A stretch of DNA of 64,000 nucleotides from Escherichia coli (GTDB taxonomy: Bacteria > Pseudomonadota > Gammaproteobacteria > Enterobacterales > Enterobacteriaceae). The notes beneath the pieces were generated by a model. That model was given only the letters and a program-made list of their open reading frames with translations. It had not been told where the DNA came from and searched no databases. The stretch lies in NCBI RefSeq assembly GCF_003019035.1, contig NZ_CP027448.1. One strand, written 5' to 3'. Position numbers and translations under genes: made by a program. The stretch's first letter is position 1; each line of letters opens with the position of its first letter. Below, piece by piece: positions 47,802-57,530 of this stretch.

Positions 47802-48032
47802 TCAGTTAAAAGCGCGTTTCAGTTCGAGTGTGCGGAGCACCTGCCCGAAGGCCGTGTTTTTCATGGCGGGGATGTGTACACCACGCCCCCGGTGAAAACT
47901 CCGGGCTATGTGTCGCCCGAAGGCTTTCAGCACGGGGTCAATTTCCGGCGCGGGGATGTCTTCGCGTCTGAAACGGGGATGACGGCGGGGCTTTACAGCC
48001 GCTGCGGAAGGTGAAACAATACTTACCGTCAT
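47802..48032 (-). CDS. Small hypothetical protein (76 aa)
   Basis: First ORF downstream of repeat copy 3, co-oriented with the operon; no family recognised. Confidence 0.4.
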   Translation of the reverse strand: MTVSIVSPSAAAVKPRRHPRFRREDIPAPEIDPVLKAFGRHIARSFHRGRGVHIPAMKNTAFGQVLRTLELKRAFN

Positions 48033-48264
48033 AAATGAAACTCCTTATGACTGTTGAATGGAACCGCAGAAACTGCTCGAACAGTTTTTGCGGTGTGGAT
48101 TAAGCAGGTCCTCCCCGGCCTGCTTTTTTCATATCTGCGTCTGACGTTCTCCGGTGTTTTCCTCCTTCTGTTCCTGCGTTCTCATTACCTGCCAGCCGGA
48201 TGACTGACAGAACAAATAAATGCGTATTGCCGGAGCCTGAAATAAATCCTGATTTTTAAAGAAC

Positions 48265-48880
48265 ATCACCCGTTGAGTTTCGGGAGCCGCGGTTTTGACG
48301 TTTCGCGGGAACCTGCTGCTGTATTCCCTGTGGTATGAACTTCACCCGTTTGAGAACCTTCGCCGCAAGGGGCATCACTGCCACGGCCTGACGCACCTGT
48401 CCTGGGCAGAACGCAAAATTTTTTACCGGGTTTGGGGTAAAAAATTTTGTGGGCTGTTCATTTACCCTGGACAGTCAGTGCGGCAGGTTGTGGCTGTATC
48501 AGCCCCCGGCGACAGGGACTCATACGGGTGTGTGGCACCCGGCAGGCAATGAGCAGGGACCCGCCGCAACGACGGAGAGCGCGTGCGCGAAACGGCGTTG
48601 CCCCTTACATCCCGGCGGCCTTTTGCCGGGATGCCAGGAGCGCAGGCCACGGCGCGACAGAGGCGGCGCGACCGGAACGGTCGCTGCAAGCCAGGGGGTT
48701 TCACGCATCGGACCGTAGCGGCAGCCCGAAACCGCGCCAGCGGGTTCGGCGGAGACTGGCAGGTGCGCCAGCAGCTGCCTGTCGGAGTCGGGCCTGACGA
48801 CCGGATGCCGCCAGGCAGCCGGGAGCCGAAGGTGCGCCCGGCAGACAGAACAACACTGCAGTAGTCAGAATCAGAGCAGC
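48265..48880 (-). repeat. Frpo/ssi-like structured repeat, copy 3
   Basis: Third copy of the repeat; 5' end slightly diverged. Confidence 0.7.
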
Positions 48881-49072
48881 AGATAAAGGAACAACAACAA
48901 CATCAGGAACAGTTCCACAACATAAGAAAGAAACACTCCTGAGTCAGACACATCACAGACGGGAAGGGTAACGGGCGACGCGCCAGCGTGGCCCGCTTCC
49001 CTTCCGGCAGGCGTCAGCCTGCCAGGGGTTTTCGCGCGGGCTGACAGGCGGCCTCCACCGCCTGCCCCTGTA

Positions 49073-49264
49073 TCACCTGTTTCTGCTGCCCTGTAAGATG
49101 TAGTGACCGCCCAGGAAAACCGCCTGCTGATTCGCCACAAAATCGCAGATTTCATCAACAATCTGCGCGGTGGTGAGCGGTTTCTGCCCCATTTCACGAC
49201 GCCGCGCATTAATCACGGCCCTGTAATTACGCAGAATTTCGCGGGTTTCTGTGCTGATATTCAT
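49073..49264 (-). CDS. Small hypothetical protein (63 aa), start overlaps upstream gene
   Basis: Start overlaps the stop of the 140-aa ORF upstream (ATGA); no family recognised. Confidence 0.45.
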   Translation of the reverse strand: MNISTETREILRNYRAVINARRREMGQKPLTTAQIVDEICDFVANQQAVFLGGHYILQGSRNR

Positions 49265-49683
49265 GACATCGTCTCCCCGTCCAGCGCCTGTAACACAACG
49301 TCCATTGCTTCGCGTTCCTCCCTGACGAATGCGTCACCGTCGCCCCCGTTCTCACTCCCGACGGCATACAGGCGCTTCATTTCACTGCCTGCCAGCGCCA
49401 TCACTTTTTCCAGCATCACCGCCGGGACTGTCACATGACGGCTGGCGCGCTTTTCTTCCATCAGTTCACGAACAACGTCGTGAACAACGCTGACATCCGC
49501 ACCATGCTCAAAGGCATCGTCCAGCCGCTGCATGACGGTTTCCAGCTCATCGTCTGCCAGACTCCAGTCCTGAGCTATGTGGCGCACATCCCCACGGGTC
49601 AGCACCACGGCAAAAACGCATTCACTGTCCGGCACGTCTGTATCCAGCACTTCGCGGATAATTTCTTTAACAGTACAGTACAT
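49261..49683 (-). CDS. Leading-region acidic protein, possibly DUF1380-like; paralog of 51390..51824
   Basis: 140-aa ORF MYCTVKEIIREVLDTD...VTVPAVMLEKV... sharing the MY.T N-terminus and VTVPA motif with the 144-aa ORF at 51390..51824. Confidence 0.6.
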   Translation of the reverse strand: MYCTVKEIIREVLDTDVPDSECVFAVVLTRGDVRHIAQDWSLADDELETVMQRLDDAFEHGADVSVVHDVVRELMEEKRASRHVTVPAVMLEKVMALAGSEMKRLYAVGSENGGDGDAFVREEREAMDVVLQALDGETMS

Positions 49684-49729
49684 GTTCTCGTCTCCTTTAC
49701 AGGGGCGGCATTGCCGCCCCGTCCGTTAA

Positions 49730-50155
49730 TCAGTCCAGTGCCGCGTAAATCGCGTTACATTCGGGGTGAAATTCGATGTGGCTCCACAACTGCGCATCGC
49801 GCATCCTGTACAGGTGAGTCAGTCCTGCATCACCGCTGTCGTGGTACAGCCACAACTGACGGTTAATCACAAGGGAAGTCACAATGATGCCTGCGGCATC
49901 GGCGCTGACCGTACGGTCAAACCAGTTTTCACCGTTCACCATGTGGAAACGGTCGCCATCCGGCATCATGTAACCGCCACCGTCCGGCAGGCGGATGAAG
50001 TGCCAGAATCCGCCTTCATATTCCGGCATCATTTTTTTCGCCAGCGCGTACACAGATGCCTCGGCATACAGAAAATCATTGCCAAACAGATACAGCAGAA
50101 AGGAGAGACGGTCGCATTCTTCAACATTCAGAGTGACAGGTTTCGCATACTGCAT
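49730..50155 (-). CDS. Putative antirestriction protein (ArdB/KlcA-like)
   Basis: 141-aa ORF from [41 protein letters not shown]... with GGAGG Shine-Dalgarno; family call from memory, moderate certainty. Confidence 0.55.
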
Positions 50156-50567
50156 GGGATTTCCTCCGTTGTTCACATATTCCGCGACACCGGGCGGTGC
50201 CGTGCCTCCATAAAAGCCGGGCGATAAGGCGGGGATGCACAGGGCGCAAGGGAAGCCGCAGCCTGACGCACACGGCTGACGGGAGTTGGAGGGGGAGACC
50301 GCGAAATCTGAGCGGGTGAACGACCGGAAAATCACGGCAGACGGGAAGGAGGGACCGGGTGACCGCAGCGTTCATTTTACCCTTGCATCCCCGCCAGCCC
50401 GGCTAAGATGGAGGCACGGCACAGCCCGCACACGACACGGTGGCCACATAACTGAAAACCCACAAGGCCATGCCTGCATGGCCGGGTAAAGCGGAGCCGG
50501 CGGCGACTTCCTTTGTGCTCTGTCCGGGGACCGGCAGAAAAAAAAGCGGGGATTTTCCCCGCCATCA

Positions 50568-51344
50568 TCAGCCCCTGATTTTTGCCAGGGCATCCGCCAT
50601 GCTGCGGATTTCGGCCCGGGCTTCCCGGACAACTTCCCGCAGAACACCACGGTCAAACCTCTGGCGGGGCGGTTCATCCGGTATACGCAGCACATCGCAG
50701 GCCAGCCCACTGGACAGGATATGTTCAATACAATCGCTGACCAGATACATTTCCACCGCCGAAAAACGTGCGCCCCGGTTCAGGATGGCATCGAGCACCA
50801 CGGGCAGGTTTTCGTCGTCCTCATCGAGCCAGCAGGGGTGATCGCTTTCCTTCACGACCAGGCGAAAGCGGCGCGTCTGGCGGGTCAGTAACGTCTGACC
50901 AGTGGTGGTCAGCGCCGCCCGGATACGCCGCGTATCTTCTGCCACCCGGCAACTGACACTGCGTACCGCATCGCGCACCGCCGCAAGTACAGCCCTGATT
51001 TCGTCTTCGGTCAGCCATTCACCGGCATACGGAAAAGACACCTGCGTTCCGTCTGCCGGAAGTACCGGCAGCGACTGCCACTGACTGCCGGACAGTACAA
51101 GTTCCTCCCCGGTTCCGGTCAGTTTGTGAATGGCGGAGGCCAGGAGCGGCGGCAGTACGCCGCCGTGACGGTTTATAAGTAACGTCGCCAGCTGGGGCGC
51201 ATCCAGCCGCACGTAAATGCTGATCCAACCCGGATAGTTCGGGTTTCGCTGGTCAACATCAGTCTCTTCCGGCCAGCCCTGCGCCAGCAGCAGGTCGCGG
51301 GCGTGACGACAAATCAGTGCATTCAGCGTTGTGTTTTCGTTCAT
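50568..51344 (-). CDS. Hypothetical leading-region protein (258 aa)
   Basis: Long ORF co-oriented with neighbours; no family recognised. Confidence 0.65.
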
Positions 51345-51389
51345 GATTAATCGTTCTCCCTGTATCGCCGCCCGGAGGCGGCGATAACA

Positions 51390-51824
51390 TCAGTCGTTTT
51401 CGTGTGTGTTGTTTTTCAGCAGGCTGCGGGTCTGATTAACCACCGCCTGACGGCGGGTGACGCATTCCGGGACGGCGAGGCCGTTATCACGGGCGGCCCA
51501 TTCACGCTTCCACAGTGCCTGTTCAGCGGTCTGAATCAGGGACGCCAGCAGTTCAGCAGGGACGGTCACCTGGCGGTTTTCACTCACGTTGCTGATAATC
51601 TCCATCGCCGCACAGGAAGAAATACCGGACTCAGTCCGCTGGTCTTCCGGGATGTCCTCCAGCCGCGCCAGGACGGTCCTGATTTCATGATCGGACAGGG
51701 AAATATCCATTCCGTCAGCGAGGGCCTGAGTTTCTTCCGGGGACCAGATAACCAGCATCAGCGGCGTGTCTCCCGGATACTGCGCTGCCAGCTCCCGGCA
51801 CAGCGTTTCGCATGTTCCGTACAT
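51390..51824 (-). CDS. Leading-region acidic protein, possibly DUF1380-like; paralog of 49261..49683
   Basis: 144-aa ORF MYGTCETLCRELAAQYPGDTPLMLVIW...VTVPAELLASL... Confidence 0.6.
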   Translation of the reverse strand: MYGTCETLCRELAAQYPGDTPLMLVIWSPEETQALADGMDISLSDHEIRTVLARLEDIPEDQRTESGISSCAAMEIISNVSENRQVTVPAELLASLIQTAEQALWKREWAARDNGLAVPECVTRRQAVVNQTRSLLKNNTHEND

Positions 51825-51837
51825 TCTCGTCTCCTTC

Positions 51838-52059
51838 TCAATCTTTGAAGCAGGAATCCAGTTCCAGAATTTCGGTATACGCCTCCATAAACAGGCGATT
51901 GGCGCGATACAGCGTCTGGCGTGTCAGGCGTTCAACAAGCACATCGGAATCAAAGCGACAGCGATGCTCCATATCGTTCAGCCTGGCCCGAAGGTCACAC
52001 ATGGTGTTGGCCACCTCCGCCACGTCGGCGCGAAGTTTTTCGTGTCCGGCATAGTTCAT
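51838..52059 (-). CDS. Small hypothetical protein (73 aa)
   Basis: ORF abutting the methyltransferase stop at 52060; no family recognised. Confidence 0.45.
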   Translation of the reverse strand: MNYAGHEKLRADVAEVANTMCDLRARLNDMEHRCRFDSDVLVERLTRQTLYRANRLFMEAYTEILELDSCFKD

Positions 52060-52743
52060 TTACGCAGCCTCCGGTTCAAACCAGTTATCATTCGCGGCCC
52101 CCTGCTGCATGGCCCGTTGCACGGCGGCCATTCGTTGCTGTCCGGCACGGTGATACTGTTCAAGCAGCTCGATACCGATATACCGGCGTCCGGACTGAAG
52201 GGCGACCACGCAGGTTGAGCCGCTGCCTGCAAACGGGTCCAGCACAATCGCGTTCGGATGTGTGAAGCTCTCAATCAGTGGTTGCAGGCTGGTAACGGGC
52301 TTTTCCGTCGGGTGATGGCGGTTGCCTGAATATTTCCAGCCCAGCACGTCCGGCAGCAGGTTTTGTGGCAGACGTGGACGGCCTTTTGCCAGGATGTAGG
52401 CGCATTCGTGGCGATAGCCCACATATGCGGCCTTCGATGTGTAGTTTTTGGTGAAGACCAGGTGCTCGACCACACTGAATCCCGCATTTTTCCAGGCGGC
52501 CATAAAGCGATCGACGCGGTTCCAGCCATAGAGGCTCACCATCAGCGCGTCTTTTTTCAGCACACGGTACATTTCATTACAGGCCGGTTGCAGCCATTCA
52601 TCGGTTTTATCACCCGCGATGGTACGTCCCTGACGGTCACGAAAACCGACGAGGTACGGCGGGTCAGTCAGCATGAAATCAATGGCGTTATCAGGGATAC
52701 GGGCCATAACATCGATGCAGTTACCGAGGACAAAACGGGACAT
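52060..52743 (-). CDS. Orphan DNA methyltransferase (beta-class N6A/N4C type, DPPY motif)
   Basis: 227-aa ORF with DPPY early and FAGSGST later (motif IV before motif I), YhdJ-like order; no adjacent restriction enzyme gene. Confidence 0.85.
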   Translation of the reverse strand: MSRFVLGNCIDVMARIPDNAIDFMLTDPPYLVGFRDRQGRTIAGDKTDEWLQPACNEMYRVLKKDALMVSLYGWNRVDRFMAAWKNAGFSVVEHLVFTKNYTSKAAYVGYRHECAYILAKGRPRLPQNLLPDVLGWKYSGNRHHPTEKPVTSLQPLIESFTHPNAIVLDPFAGSGSTCVVALQSGRRYIGIELLEQYHRAGQQRMAAVQRAMQQGAANDNWFEPEAA

Positions 52744-53126
52744 AACAACGCTCCTTCTTTCACAGAGGGCACCGGGAGGGCCCCCTGTGGTGCCCGTTCC
52801 CCGCTGCCTGTGGGCTGTTCACCGCGTCCGGTAACTGGTCAGGCCGACCGTGGAATACCGCAGCCGTCGTCTTTTTGACGGCAAGGTTATGCCGCGAAAG
52901 CGGCTTGAAGGGCGTTCATCAGAAAAGGGCGACGGGCTGGCGTACACTGTCACCGACGCCAGCCGGGAGCGGTAAAAGCGACCGTTCCGTGCCCGCCGGA
53001 CGCGGGACACTGACCACAGGCAGCGTTCCTGCCGCGCCGCGTCAGCCGGCGCAGTAAAAAGAGGAGCACGGCGACATCCTTTGTCGGAAAAGAAACGGGC
53101 GGTTGCCCGCCCGTCTCCGTCATACT

Positions 53127-54053
53127 TCATCCGCCATAATGCGCCACATTGTCGACTATCCACGCAGGTCCGGTGACCTCCGGCAGCTCATCGTCATCTG
53201 TCGGGGAAGACCATTCCTGTTCCCCCCACAGAACATCAACAAGCTCTCCACGCTCATATCGCTGCCAGCCACAGAAATTGCAGCCCTGTTCGGCATACCA
53301 GTGCTCCAGCGTGCAGCCGAAACGGCGGCTTAATTCTGCAACAACGTCGCTTTCCGGCTGACACCACGGCGTGTCAAAATCCACCTGAATGAAGTTTTCT
53401 CCCTGACGGCCGATATTCAGGTCATACCCACAAGGCCACTTCACGCCATACCGTTCCGTATACCAGTGATATGCAGAAGGAACACCGTTCAGAACACCAC
53501 CGTTAAAGCCGTTCACTTCAACATCCAGGCGGGTCGGCAGAACCGTCAGCAGGTCAAACGGCATGGTTTTTTCCGGCACTACGTTGTCACACAGACGGTT
53601 CCACCACACCGATACATCCTCGTTACTCCAGAAGCCACACCAGTCACCTCTTTTTGCGGTGAAAAGTGCGGTGATGGTATCCCTGACATCGTCCGGTAAT
53701 CCTTCCCAGCGACGCTGTCCAGTACCGCTCTGCAGCCAGAGTTCATGCAGCATCAGGCAGTTTTGCTCATCCAGCAGTACACCGTCCTGCAGATATGTCA
53801 GCCAGCGGGTGAACGCGATATTCTCCGGCGATACAACGCCACGCCCGGCAGCCGTCAGTCCGGGGCATGGTTCAAACCGCACATCTTCAGTGGTCTGCAG
53901 AAGTCCGGCACTTCCGGCCAGAAACAGCTGAATACCTTCATTTGTGGCGCGGCGATAAAGCGGTGTGACTGCGCCGCTGGCCAGTCGTTTAATCTCAGCG
54001 ATCTGTGCCGGTTCACCAGAAAAATACATACGATTCGAGCACCAGTTTGGCAT
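53127..54053 (-). CDS. Leading-region protein, DUF1281-like
   Basis: ORF with likely start MPNWCSNRMYFSG and GGAG Shine-Dalgarno; track ORF starts at 54098; family assignment from memory only. Confidence 0.6.
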   Translation of the reverse strand: MPNWCSNRMYFSGEPAQIAEIKRLASGAVTPLYRRATNEGIQLFLAGSAGLLQTTEDVRFEPCPGLTAAGRGVVSPENIAFTRWLTYLQDGVLLDEQNCLMLHELWLQSGTGQRRWEGLPDDVRDTITALFTAKRGDWCGFWSNEDVSVWWNRLCDNVVPEKTMPFDLLTVLPTRLDVEVNGFNGGVLNGVPSAYHWYTERYGVKWPCGYDLNIGRQGENFIQVDFDTPWCQPESDVVAELSRRFGCTLEHWYAEQGCNFCGWQRYERGELVDVLWGEQEWSSPTDDDELPEVTGPAWIVDNVAHYGG

Positions 54054-54695: not shown

Positions 54696-55129
54696 GTACC
54701 GTTTATCACCGTCCGGCTGACCCTTCAGGCGATGACAGTTACGTGCGACCGTTGTTTGCCGATCGTTGCCAGGCCGGTTTTCCTTCGCCTGCCACTGATT
54801 ATGCTGAGCAGGAACTGGATCTGAACAGCTATTGCATCAGCAGACCTGCAGCCACCTTCTTTCTGCGCGCCAGCGGTGAATCGATGAACCAGGCTGACGT
54901 GCAGAATGGTGATCTGCTGGTAGTGGACAGGGCCGAAAAACCACAACACGGGGACATCGTTATCGCTGAGATCGACGGTGAGTTCACCGTCAAACGACTG
55001 CTGTTGCGCCCACGCCCGGCACTGGAGCCGGTTTCAGACAGCCCGGAGTTCCGCACACTGTATCCGGAAAACATCTGTATTTTTGGTGTTGTCACTCACG
55101 TGATACACAGGACGCGGGAGTTACGCTGA
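54692..55129 (+). CDS. impA: ImpA (UmuD-like S24 peptidase-domain protein)
   Basis: 145-aa ORF with LexA/UmuD-type Ser-Lys dyad context (ASGESM ... K) and overlap with impB start. Confidence 0.85.
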   Translation: MSTVYHRPADPSGDDSYVRPLFADRCQAGFPSPATDYAEQELDLNSYCISRPAATFFLRASGESMNQADVQNGDLLVVDRAEKPQHGDIVIAEIDGEFTVKRLLLRPRPALEPVSDSPEFRTLYPENICIFGVVTHVIHRTRELR

Positions 55130-55251
55130 TGTTTACACTGGCTGATATCAACAGTTTCTACGCCTCATGTGAAAAAGTTTTCCGCCCGGACCTTCGCAAC
55201 GAACCGGTCATCGTACTCAGCAATAACGATGGCTGTGTGATCGCACGCAGC
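55126..55251 (+). pseudogene. impB: impB (UmuC-like Y-family polymerase), 5' fragment cut by insertion
   Basis: MFTLADINSFYASCEKVFRPDLRNEPVIVLSNNDGCVIARS matches the UmuC N-terminus, then leaves homology and hits a stop at about 55284. Confidence 0.8.
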
Positions 55252-55301
55252 CCAGATTATGTGGAATTGCAAGTAACGTTGTAGTGCTGATGAGGAAAAT
55301 T

Positions 55302-57530
55302 TTATCTGACTACAATATTGATATCGTTTTCCGCAACAATCAGCATCACGGCAGGTAAACCCTCCACACGCATTTTCTGGTGTAATTTTTTGATTAAATT
55401 ATCATCTTCATTACTGGCTTTTGCGGAAAAGCCTTGTGGATGGGAGTGCCATTCGCCAACATAATCGACAACACGAGCGGTCAACTGGTGAACCCGTTCT
55501 AATGCTTCTTGTTGTCCCGCTTCTCCCCGGACAAAGGAGGCTGGAGAGGATTTACTGTCGATAGGTTCAGGGAGCACGTCAACCAGAATAATCGTTTTGT
55601 TCTTAAAATCTGTTATGCCAACAATTGCACCTCCTGTTTCATTAGGCAGTGCCTGTAAGCGGGTGTGCTGCAATTTTTGCGCTAAGCCCTGGTCATATTT
55701 AACAACCCATTCGCCAGAAATTATAGATACCACGGAATAGAGTTCAATTTCATGTGCATCCATCGCGCCTGATATTTCATCAGATACCCAGATACACAAT
55801 CGAGCATTTCCTTTGAGTGCAGTCTGGCGAAGTTGGCGTGAGAGGATACCGGCATGAACATGAATACATTCACTGGACATACGTACAGAAATATCCCGAC
55901 ATCCACCACCGACCCAACGATCGCCATAATTGTGCTGTAGGTGAGTACTTCCCCACTCACTGCTCAAAATTGCCCGATAGTATTGCCCCTCAATTGCATC
56001 AATTCGGCATTGTCTGTCTACATCCTCCATTAACATCACGCTAGACTGACCCGATGGAGTCAGAAACAGGCTAACTATTCTGGGTATATCATCTTTTAAC
56101 ACTAGAGTCCTCGGCACCTCAAAGGTGGTACTGACATCCACAACTAAGTCTGCCTCATTCATTGCCTTAGCAATATCATCATCGTCATCAAGAATACTTT
56201 TATGGATCGCCTGAGGGAGGGGCTCATGCGGATAAATAGATTTGGCAATATGCTGAATAATATGGGGTTTTGAGACTCCAATATGACAATCAAACCCAAT
56301 ATGGCGAGACAAATTATGTGGAAGAAGCCGATCTGGATCAATAAAAGTCCATGTCCCCCACCCCATTCGAATCCAAATATCAGCCAATGTACTACCAAGA
56401 GCGCCAACTCCAGCTAAAATACCTCGAAAAGCTGCACTCTCTGAATCAACAGCAGATATGTCTCTCGCATGTGTGGCCTTCATAGCCGAACGTATTTCAA
56501 CTGGTAAAAGCGGTAATTGTCGCCACTTGGTACTAATTGATCCGCCAAGAAGCCGTACGCGATGCTGTACTCCTCGCTCATTTTTTGGCGCCAGCATATC
56601 TAGTGCAGTGGCAAGTTCACCGAGTGAACTTTGCACAACATAGCCCATCACATCCGTACGTTCTGTTTCTCCGTTTCTTAGACGGGGGATCCAAAGCAGG
56701 ATAAGTAAGCCTTCTCCTTTACCAGACGTTGGGCGGATACCATCACTTGGTATTGCTTCATAAACAGCGTCAGTTAGTGGTTTTAGGAGCTCACTTCCCC
56801 ATTCATTAAGTTGTTCTTCTAATTTTCCCAGATTATCCGGGTATGTAGCCACCGTAGAAACATCGACAGGAGGAACAGCAATAGTTAATAAGCGAAATGG
56901 CTTAACGCTTGAGGTATCTTGTTCTGGTACAGCCCTTAAAATAATCGGTCGCCCCTCACTGACCATCTGGAGACTGAGCTTATTGTCAGTCGCGTGATGA
57001 TAATCGGGGTAATTGGCTGGCAAAATGAGCTGATAGGGACTCAAATAAAAAAGTTGCTCAAGTGGCTGATCTTCTCGATGTAGATGCAGTTCGGCCGATT
57101 CTCTAAGCCACCAAAAAATGCGCTCAAGGAATCTCTCGGGGGTCCAACTGCGCTCAACTGCGCTCCAGGAGGCCTCATATAGGCAAAGAATTCGTGGTGA
57201 GCCAGGTTCTCCAGCATGCTGGTGAGAAAGAACAGGGAAATCTTTCCGCAATGCATGAACCAAGATAGGTATGCTTGATTTGGGATTGACCTCAATAGCC
57301 AATCGTTCTTTACGACGAATACGGGCTTGATTACCAGAAGCCACAGTCCCATCAGCAGCATCAATGATTAGATATTCCGAGCGGTTATCATTTATTTCAG
57401 AAAATCGTAATTCTCTGACTGTGACGTAAGGATGATTCTCGCATGCTTTAAGCAGCGAAATCGTTTGTGGATAAAGGCTATCGCGCCCCGATGAATCGAG
57501 GCGCTCACCCAATTCGAAATATTCGATCAT
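55302..57530 (-). CDS. Fused E2-like / E1-like (ThiF/MoeB) / JAB-MPN peptidase protein
   Basis: 742-aa ORF: N-terminal H...C pattern (HQHAGEPGSPRILCLY, UBC-like); central Rossmann GILAGVGALGSTLADIWIRMGWGTWTFIDPDRLLPHNLSRH (E1 signature); C-terminal JAMM-like EWHSHPQGFSAKASNEDD. Confidence 0.75.
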   Translation of the reverse strand: MIEYFELGERLDSSGRDSLYPQTISLLKACENHPYVTVRELRFSEINDNRSEYLIIDAADGTVASGNQARIRRKERLAIEVNPKSSIPILVHALRKDFPVLSHQHAGEPGSPRILCLYEASWSAVERSWTPERFLERIFWWLRESAELHLHREDQPLEQLFYLSPYQLILPANYPDYHHATDNKLSLQMVSEGRPIILRAVPEQDTSSVKPFRLLTIAVPPVDVSTVATYPDNLGKLEEQLNEWGSELLKPLTDAVYEAIPSDGIRPTSGKGEGLLILLWIPRLRNGETERTDVMGYVVQSSLGELATALDMLAPKNERGVQHRVRLLGGSISTKWRQLPLLPVEIRSAMKATHARDISAVDSESAAFRGILAGVGALGSTLADIWIRMGWGTWTFIDPDRLLPHNLSRHIGFDCHIGVSKPHIIQHIAKSIYPHEPLPQAIHKSILDDDDDIAKAMNEADLVVDVSTTFEVPRTLVLKDDIPRIVSLFLTPSGQSSVMLMEDVDRQCRIDAIEGQYYRAILSSEWGSTHLQHNYGDRWVGGGCRDISVRMSSECIHVHAGILSRQLRQTALKGNARLCIWVSDEISGAMDAHEIELYSVVSIISGEWVVKYDQGLAQKLQHTRLQALPNETGGAIVGITDFKNKTIILVDVLPEPIDSKSSPASFVRGEAGQQEALERVHQLTARVVDYVGEWHSHPQGFSAKASNEDDNLIKKLHQKMRVEGLPAVMLIVAENDINIVVR

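Follow-up and report, generated by a model that had tools for sequence, protein, structure and literature searches.

ArdA and Ocr, which block restriction enzymes as DNA mimics, are small, acidic proteins that are expressed early, and ArdA is encoded in plasmid leading regions. KlcA/ArdB (PF03230; PDB 2KMG and 2WJ9) is an antirestriction protein that relieves restriction when expressed alone. PsiB, an SOS inhibitor of about 143 amino acids (aa), is a leading-region protein that is zygotically induced from a single-stranded DNA (ssDNA) promoter and acts by binding the host protein RecA. Here we analyse two acidic proteins of the family DUF1380, 140 and 144 aa in length, whose genes lie in the leading region of an IncF conjugative plasmid of Escherichia coli (contig NZ_CP027448.1, assembly GCF_003019035.1), within a 64,000-nucleotide (nt) stretch that we refer to as the window.

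The pair shares its small size, its acidity and probably its early expression with ArdA and Ocr, but has no sequence or fold similarity to them: its predicted fold is all helical, and alignment of a DUF1380 family profile with an ArdA sequence (hhalign) reached a probability of 0.09% (E 0.57). KlcA/ArdB is encoded next to, and upstream of, the 140-aa protein in the same early operon, and is of similar size and mildly acidic. In this case hhalign gave a probability of 0.11% and neither member of the pair matches PF03230, which makes them unrelated families. PsiB is equal in size to the pair; it differs in belonging to another operon and has no detectable homology to DUF1380 (hhalign probability 0.25%). 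Its binding of a host protein is the kind of mechanism that we propose for the pair.

The two genes are an ordinary, abundant and already annotated feature of such plasmids. Public records by the thousand name them 'DUF1380 family protein (x2)', and thousands of database entries at 91–100% identity occupy the same leading-region site on IncF and IncI plasmids, in the same orientation and beside the same neighbours. Plasmid records from Escherichia, Klebsiella, Salmonella and Shigella in which both genes occur number at least 5000. The 4-kb stretch around them has a 99.7% identical counterpart in plasmid pRHB01-C21_2 of E. coli, and at identities of 90% or more it is found in at least 5000 plasmid records. 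Samuel et al. (2024) took a census of leading regions, in which YubF, the type to which the 144-aa protein belongs, is family 7 (3957 members; the median gene position, counted from the origin of transfer, oriT, is 19), and YubJ, the type of the 140-aa protein, is family 14 (3145 members, median position 15). The numbers refer to a list of the 100 largest families, in which the two are kept apart and are both uncharacterized (PMC11541004). What is new here is that the two census families are sister clades of one family, each tied to its own upstream gene, with their divergence lying in a C-terminal helical hairpin.

Two distant paralogues of one family

The first-pass annotation of the window had singled out the two proteins for a common MY.T start, a VTVPA motif and an acidic character, and all of these are present. 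The 140-aa protein (positions 49261–49683, minus strand) begins with MYCT, has VTVPA at residues 84–88 and carries a net charge of −17 (pI 4.41). The 144-aa protein (51390–51824, minus strand) begins with MYGT, has the motif at residues 86–90 and carries a net charge of −11 (pI 4.55). From start to start, the two genes are 2,141 nt apart. We assign the 140-aa protein to a KlcA-linked clade as a YubJ-type DUF1380 paralogue (YubJ/YfeC/YcjA/YcgC; 97.1% identical to its counterpart Hp12 of plasmid pESBL) and the 144-aa protein to a methylase-linked clade as a YubF-type paralogue (YubF/YfcB/YcgB; 91.7% identical to pESBL Hp10), and call them YubJ and YubF below.

The similarity between the two proteins is far above what their composition would produce by chance. 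BLASTP with compositional adjustment aligned them at 27% identity over 116 aa (E 6e-9), and their Smith–Waterman score was 93, compared with 28.8 ± 5.0 (maximum 54; z = 13) for 2000 composition-preserving shuffles of one of the two sequences. When a YubF-clade profile was aligned with a YubJ-clade profile (hhalign), the match had a probability of 99.5% and an E value of 1.2e-22 over 134 columns, that is, over the full length. Against Pfam DUF1380 (PF07128), a model built on the YubF lineage with a gathering cut-off of 26 bits, YubF scored 176.3 bits (E 4.3e-52; profile positions 1–137 of 137) and passed, whereas YubJ scored 21.4 bits (E 2.9e-4; profile positions 1–102 only) and fell under the cut-off. 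PHROG 9024 was matched by both (1.8e-71 for YubF, 2.7e-5 for YubJ), and DUF1380 by 26 of the 29 members of a joint family alignment. A hidden Markov model of the family, run against the six-frame translation of the window, found exactly two copies. These sequence comparisons confirm the paralogy that had been proposed: YubJ and YubF are true, distant homologues, and paralogues of the one family DUF1380.

Clades and genomic context

A joint-profile search of 1.84 billion representative proteins returned 272 at E ≤ 1e-3, many of them fragments, and showed that the DUF1380 family is narrow and confined to enterobacterial conjugative plasmids; a search of viral contigs with one family alignment found a single locus. 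The 29 full-length members separate into two clades with neighbour-joining bootstrap support of 100/100. A complete YubE gene lay directly upstream of the YubF-type gene in six of seven look-ups, and an N6/N4 methylase gene was also visible in five of those six; in the seventh, the preceding 34-codon open reading frame (ORF) is cut by the contig end and cannot be classified. The same order, YubE and then the YubF-type gene, also occurs in loci L004–L006. YubJ-type genes directly followed a KlcA/ArdB gene in all five informative distant loci, including that of the intermediate pair P0367 and P0377. At locus L010 the YubF gene is followed by ArdA, without YubG, and ArdA fills the slot of the KlcA–YubJ module.

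We found no similarity between the neighbours that would make them paralogous as well (YffA compared with YubE; KlcA compared with YubG), and by these comparisons the DUF1380 gene is the only one of these operons that is duplicated. Because two fully supported clades extend across distant plasmids, each locked to its own upstream gene, the duplication is ancient: it was not made in this plasmid, and the lineages split long ago. The first-pass annotation had placed a duplication inside the leading region; the paralogy and the leading-region site are borne out, whereas a local or recent origin is not.

Judged by their substitution ratios, both DUF1380 genes are real and under purifying selection that is looser than on their neighbours, with dN/dS of 0.22–0.39 for the pair against 0.08–0.13 for the methylase and KlcA. 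In distant plasmids YubF is 25–40% identical where the methylase is 68–88% identical, and YubF is the fastest-diverging gene of its operon.

In-frame YubF–YubG fusions (P0241, P0381 and P0388; 375 aa) are present on about ten E. coli contigs and match positions 50568–51824 of the window. The deletion that joins the two genes removes the C-terminus of YubF and the first ~17 residues of YubG. As a 'Rosetta stone', the fusions give a weak hint of joint action.

Domain layout and predicted structure

AlphaFold2 models were made from an alignment of 29 sequences. The model of YubJ is all helical (mean pLDDT 80.9, pTM 0.58), and that of YubF has its helices in the same order (mean pLDDT 85.2, pTM 0.56). 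Both models are confident locally and less so globally. In both, a helical N-terminal part is followed by the VTVPA linker and then by two long C-terminal helices. Structure prediction had been put forward in the first-pass annotation as a check on the pair; it returned two helical models of like helix order, but no fold of a DNA mimic.

Identity between the paralogues differs sharply by part, being 29% over residues 1–60, 70% in the R-x-VTVPA-x-x-L linker and 11% in the hairpin. Despite this low value between paralogues, the C-terminal hairpin is conserved inside each clade, a pattern that fits different partners or targets and is in line with the earlier suggestion of different target specificities. 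Acidity is maintained mainly in the N-domain, which has a net charge of −4 to −13 in all family members but one. In the YubJ clade, the hairpin tip also carries an acidic loop, GGDGD, that is conserved.

Fold searches with the models found only generic helical hairpins, apart from one Erwinia phage protein. In the PDB, searched by sequence profile, the best match was a de novo designed protein (E 0.021), and, at E values up to 5, NCBIfam, PADLOC and Pfam yielded DUF1380 alone, together with scattered single weak matches. PP-binding, which three members matched at 0.013, was rejected because the alignment does not conserve the serine of the ACP-like 'DSL' stretch. No model of the PADLOC library was matched by DUF1380 proteins; that library spans defence systems, so the result means merely that they are not known defence proteins.

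The Erwinia phage protein (BFVD A0A7L8ZN79, from phage pEa_SNUABM_47) is an uncharacterized protein of 92 aa, which matched the YubF model with a Foldseek E value of 4e-3 and a target TM of 0.63. The alignment has 80 columns at 22% identity, and we guess from its length that it covers the N-terminal part of the model. The match suggests that a phage may encode part of the DUF1380 fold as a separate protein.

Operons and early expression

In the window, oriT lies at ~37 kb, flanked by traM and an SLT gene, with FinP and the traJ leader at 36.5 kb. The genes sok, psiB, ssb, a parB-like gene and a DUF3560 gene lie between oriT and the DUF1380 pair, whose distance from oriT within the leading region is 12–14 kb. 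Between 38 and 54 kb, every gene of the leading region is on the minus strand. The strand transferred from oriT onwards, 5′ to 3′, is the plus strand, which is therefore the template for all of them.

The pair is distributed over two operons with a terminator between them, methylase–yubE–yubF–yubG and klcA–yubJ–yffA, within which the intergenic gaps are tight. The first gene of the first operon encodes a beta-class N6/N4 DNA methylase (YubD/YfbB; 52060–52743, minus strand; Pfam N6_N4_Mtase 2.9e-39). It is a homologue of the single-strand-specific methylase M.EcoGIX of pESBL-EA11, at 91.6% identity, and its PDB matches include CcrM, RsrI and DpnA. YubE, of 73 aa (PF27407; YfcA; pESBL Hp9; 51838–52059, minus strand; PHROG 4830 1e-36), stands between the methylase and YubF. 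The last gene encodes the 258-aa YubG/YfdA/YchA (pESBL Hp11; 50568–51344, minus strand; PHROG 8919 1e-138), for which we found no match in Pfam or the PDB; a protein of 255–266 aa follows the YubF-type gene in six loci. An intrinsic-terminator-like hairpin with a T-run begins 5 nt past the yubG stop (50545–50563, minus strand; 8-bp stem with six G–C pairs, TTTTTTT). The second operon starts with the KlcA/ArdB-type antirestriction gene (49730–50155, minus strand; PF03230 Antirestrict 5.9e-27; PDB 2KMG KlcA 4e-17), continues with yubJ and ends with yffA, a 63-aa ORF (pESBL Hp13; 49073–49264, minus strand) whose start overlaps the yubJ stop (ATGA). A 58-aa ORF occupies the equivalent site in loci L006 and L007, and YffA is family 6 of the leading-region census (PMC11541004).

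No sigma-70-like site was found on either strand between 48900 and 53200. What precedes each operon is a region with strong potential to fold as ssDNA, as judged by fold energy against shuffled controls. Upstream of the methylase, a structured region (52744–53126, plus strand; −109.6 kcal/mol, z −6.3) contains a 30-nt inverted repeat (52802–52831 and 52996–53025), is 96.1% identical to the region 5′ of M.EcoGIX in pESBL-EA11 and is conserved in distant plasmids; we regard it as a putative class 3 ssDNA promoter. Upstream of klcA, the transferred strand has a long imperfect hairpin (50191–50427, plus strand), a putative class 2 ssDNA promoter. The surrounding interval, 50156–50567, folds at −103.7 kcal/mol (z −5.4) and is 92.9% identical to the pESBL region over 408 nt. 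By eye, the right arm of this hairpin holds a putative promoter-like pair, TTGCAT (50383–50388) and TAAGAT (50404–50409), 15 nt apart.

In pESBL-EA11, Wen et al. (2025) mapped transcript starts by 5′ rapid amplification of cDNA ends to a class 3 ssDNA promoter for M.EcoGIX and a class 2 ssDNA promoter for klcA, and found the KlcA and M.EcoGIX operons to be induced in transconjugants of both pESBL and F (PMC12672017). The locus has two marks of leading-region genes driven by ssDNA promoters, the transferred strand as template and a structured upstream element homologous to a mapped promoter. By near-identity to pESBL and F, both operons of the window are probably switched on within minutes of DNA entry, from promoters that would exist only while the entering strand is single-stranded and folded into hairpins.

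Possible functions of the pair

In a transposon screen of pESBL, the score of Hp10 and of Hp12 was 1.00 ('non-essential') in respect of both plasmid maintenance and transfer to E. coli K-12, and M.EcoGIX, KlcA, ArdA and PsiB had the same score (PMC4288162). M.EcoGIX protects against EcoRI and EcoGIII in recipients, and its knockout has a 1000-fold defect in transfer into restricting recipients.

The reading that we favour, for which we put belief and doubt about level, is that YubF and YubJ contribute early, and under some conditions, to plasmid establishment by helping in the evasion of restriction, and that they act as protein-binding helpers or inhibitors rather than as DNA mimics. We propose protein binding because the two proteins are small, acidic, fast-evolving and dispensable in permissive matings, are co-expressed with antirestriction genes and have a lineage-specific hairpin. 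Each protein would consist of an acidic helical N-domain common to both, the R-x-VTVPA linker, which is conserved, and, at the C-terminus, a long helical hairpin particular to its lineage. The N-domain would supply an activity common to both, our best guess being the binding of a host or plasmid protein, and the hairpin would link each copy with a partner or target of its own.

Several points weigh against this proposal. The arrangement of the domains is uncertain at a pTM of 0.56–0.58, and the fast evolution of the pair could reflect mere weak constraint. Guilt by association is a weak argument, and leading regions also hold genes that have nothing to do with defence. KlcA occurs without a YubJ-type gene at loci L014 and L023; because of this, and because KlcA and M.EcoGIX each work alone, an obligatory partnership is unlikely. 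Searches of the literature for DUF1380, PF07128 and gene names of the yub, yfc, yfe, ycg and ycj series gave no functional study. For family 7, Samuel et al. report no match to anti-restriction or anti-CRISPR sequences or structures, and for family 14 only a few matches to ArdB, which probably come from mis-merged neighbours (PMC11541004).

A broader proposal is possible but more doubtful. DUF1380 may be an unrecognized restriction-evasion family, whose members would be either stand-alone inhibitors of host defence proteins, the two lineages having different targets, or cofactors through which the weak single-strand methylase M.EcoGIX and KlcA become effective on the entering strand. Were the cofactor version true, polarity on yubE, yubF and yubG would account for part of the 1000-fold phenotype of the M.EcoGIX deletion. 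The published knockout is a replacement by a gentamicin cassette, and we found no complementation in the text of that paper; polar effects on the three co-transcribed genes are possible (locus L024, pESBL-EA11 54782–56957, which corresponds to 50568–52743 of the window).

The main rival to our favoured reading, unlikely in our judgement but with evidence on its side, is that the pair are dedicated accessory subunits. YubF, with YubE and YubG, would tune or target a weak ssDNA methylase, YubJ would do likewise for KlcA, and the N-domain that the two share would bind one platform for both, for instance ssDNA, SSB or a Pol I complex. The invariant gene order, the tight coupling to neighbours that are not themselves paralogous and the lineage-specific hairpins are all as expected for such subunits; the YubF–YubG fusions and the possible polarity of the cassette knockout point the same way. 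However, the gap between the identities of the methylase and of YubF in distant plasmids would be unusual for obligate subunits, KlcA is found without YubJ and needs no partner to relieve restriction, and at L010 YubF is accompanied by ArdA and not by YubG. The biochemistry of M.EcoGIX bears on both sides. Its activity is lost on purification, a change that its authors attributed to 'loss of a required factor', but when expressed alone it methylates ssDNA, and the missing factor was traced to associated host Pol I (PMC7736820).

DNA mimicry, the mode of action suggested in the first-pass annotation, is improbable. YubJ and YubF would in that case present a DNA-like carboxylate surface, each blocking different restriction enzymes in the manner of ArdA and Ocr. 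Such a role would suit two proteins with pI values of 4.4–4.6, an N-domain whose acidity is conserved in the family, antirestriction genes next door, probable early expression and fast evolution, and the acidic GGDGD loop of the YubJ clade would suit it as well. On the other side, the net charge per residue is −0.12 for YubJ and −0.08 for YubF, which is less negative than in Ocr and ArdA, and one distant member of the family has almost no net charge (−1). The comparison with ArdA by hhalign, described above, revealed no profile similarity, neither model has a structural match to any known mimic, and the census recorded no anti-restriction structural match for family 7 (PMC11541004). The mismatch in fold would not be decisive alone, because DNA mimics have no one common fold.

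We consider it just as improbable that the two are early proteins unrelated to defence, which would modulate, for example, host physiology or leading-region expression, as proposed for YfjB. A 2026 preprint has leading-region YfjB reprogramming the host, an indication that not all zygotically induced proteins are anti-defence, and the DUF1380 proteins match no characterized family and no PADLOC defence model. Both lineages are, however, linked to antirestriction genes specifically and not to ssb, psiB or parB, and an acidic protein is unlikely to be a DNA-binding regulator.

A chance resemblance from acidic composition, or a recent local duplication in this plasmid, is refuted: a pairwise identity of just 27% and a YubJ score under the DUF1380 cut-off might speak for it, but none of the 2000 shuffles came near the observed score, the clade profiles align over their full length, the separate clades of both copies are maintained in distant plasmids and dN/dS is below 0.4 for both genes.

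The finding leaves current understanding unchanged. In the IncF and IncI plasmids by which antibiotic resistance spreads, YubF and YubJ are among the commonest uncharacterized leading-region proteins, and the combination of one family, one antirestriction gene per lineage and a divergent hairpin provides a concrete design for deletion and interaction experiments.

Other features of the window

YubE diverges in a mosaic fashion. It is 100% identical to its counterpart in pEQ011 and 77–78% identical to those of IncI plasmids (dS 0.77), compared with 91–95% for the flanking genes (measured against loci L001, L003 and L024). Such uneven divergence suggests that recombination has had breakpoints within the operon.

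Public records place a 103-aa hypothetical ORF (52819–53130, minus strand) over the hairpin region that lies upstream of the methylase; it may be a real gene or a by-product of the conservation of this DNA as a putative ssDNA promoter. In distant loci, too, the DUF1281 gene has small ORFs after it (L006, 499–726; L014, 3661–3993).

Just downstream of yffA, an ORF-poor, GC-rich stretch of about 1 kb (48033–49072) is without a convincing gene. It is the site of an Rfam match to AS-pc01 (RF02875, 'antisense to pHK01_035'; 48027–48128, plus strand; 89.7 bits) and contains short hairpins at 48407–48456 and 48600–48641. This stretch could contain a further regulatory or ssDNA-promoter element.

Just past the leading region, near DinI and umuD genes that are not followed by umuC in the annotation, lies a stretch of ~55.3–63.5 kb. 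By the annotation of CP058084.1 (L002, 26503–34682), it encodes a ThiF-family adenylyltransferase, a metallohydrolase, a WYL-domain protein and three tyrosine recombinases/integrases. It looks like an inserted island, and possibly carries a defence system.

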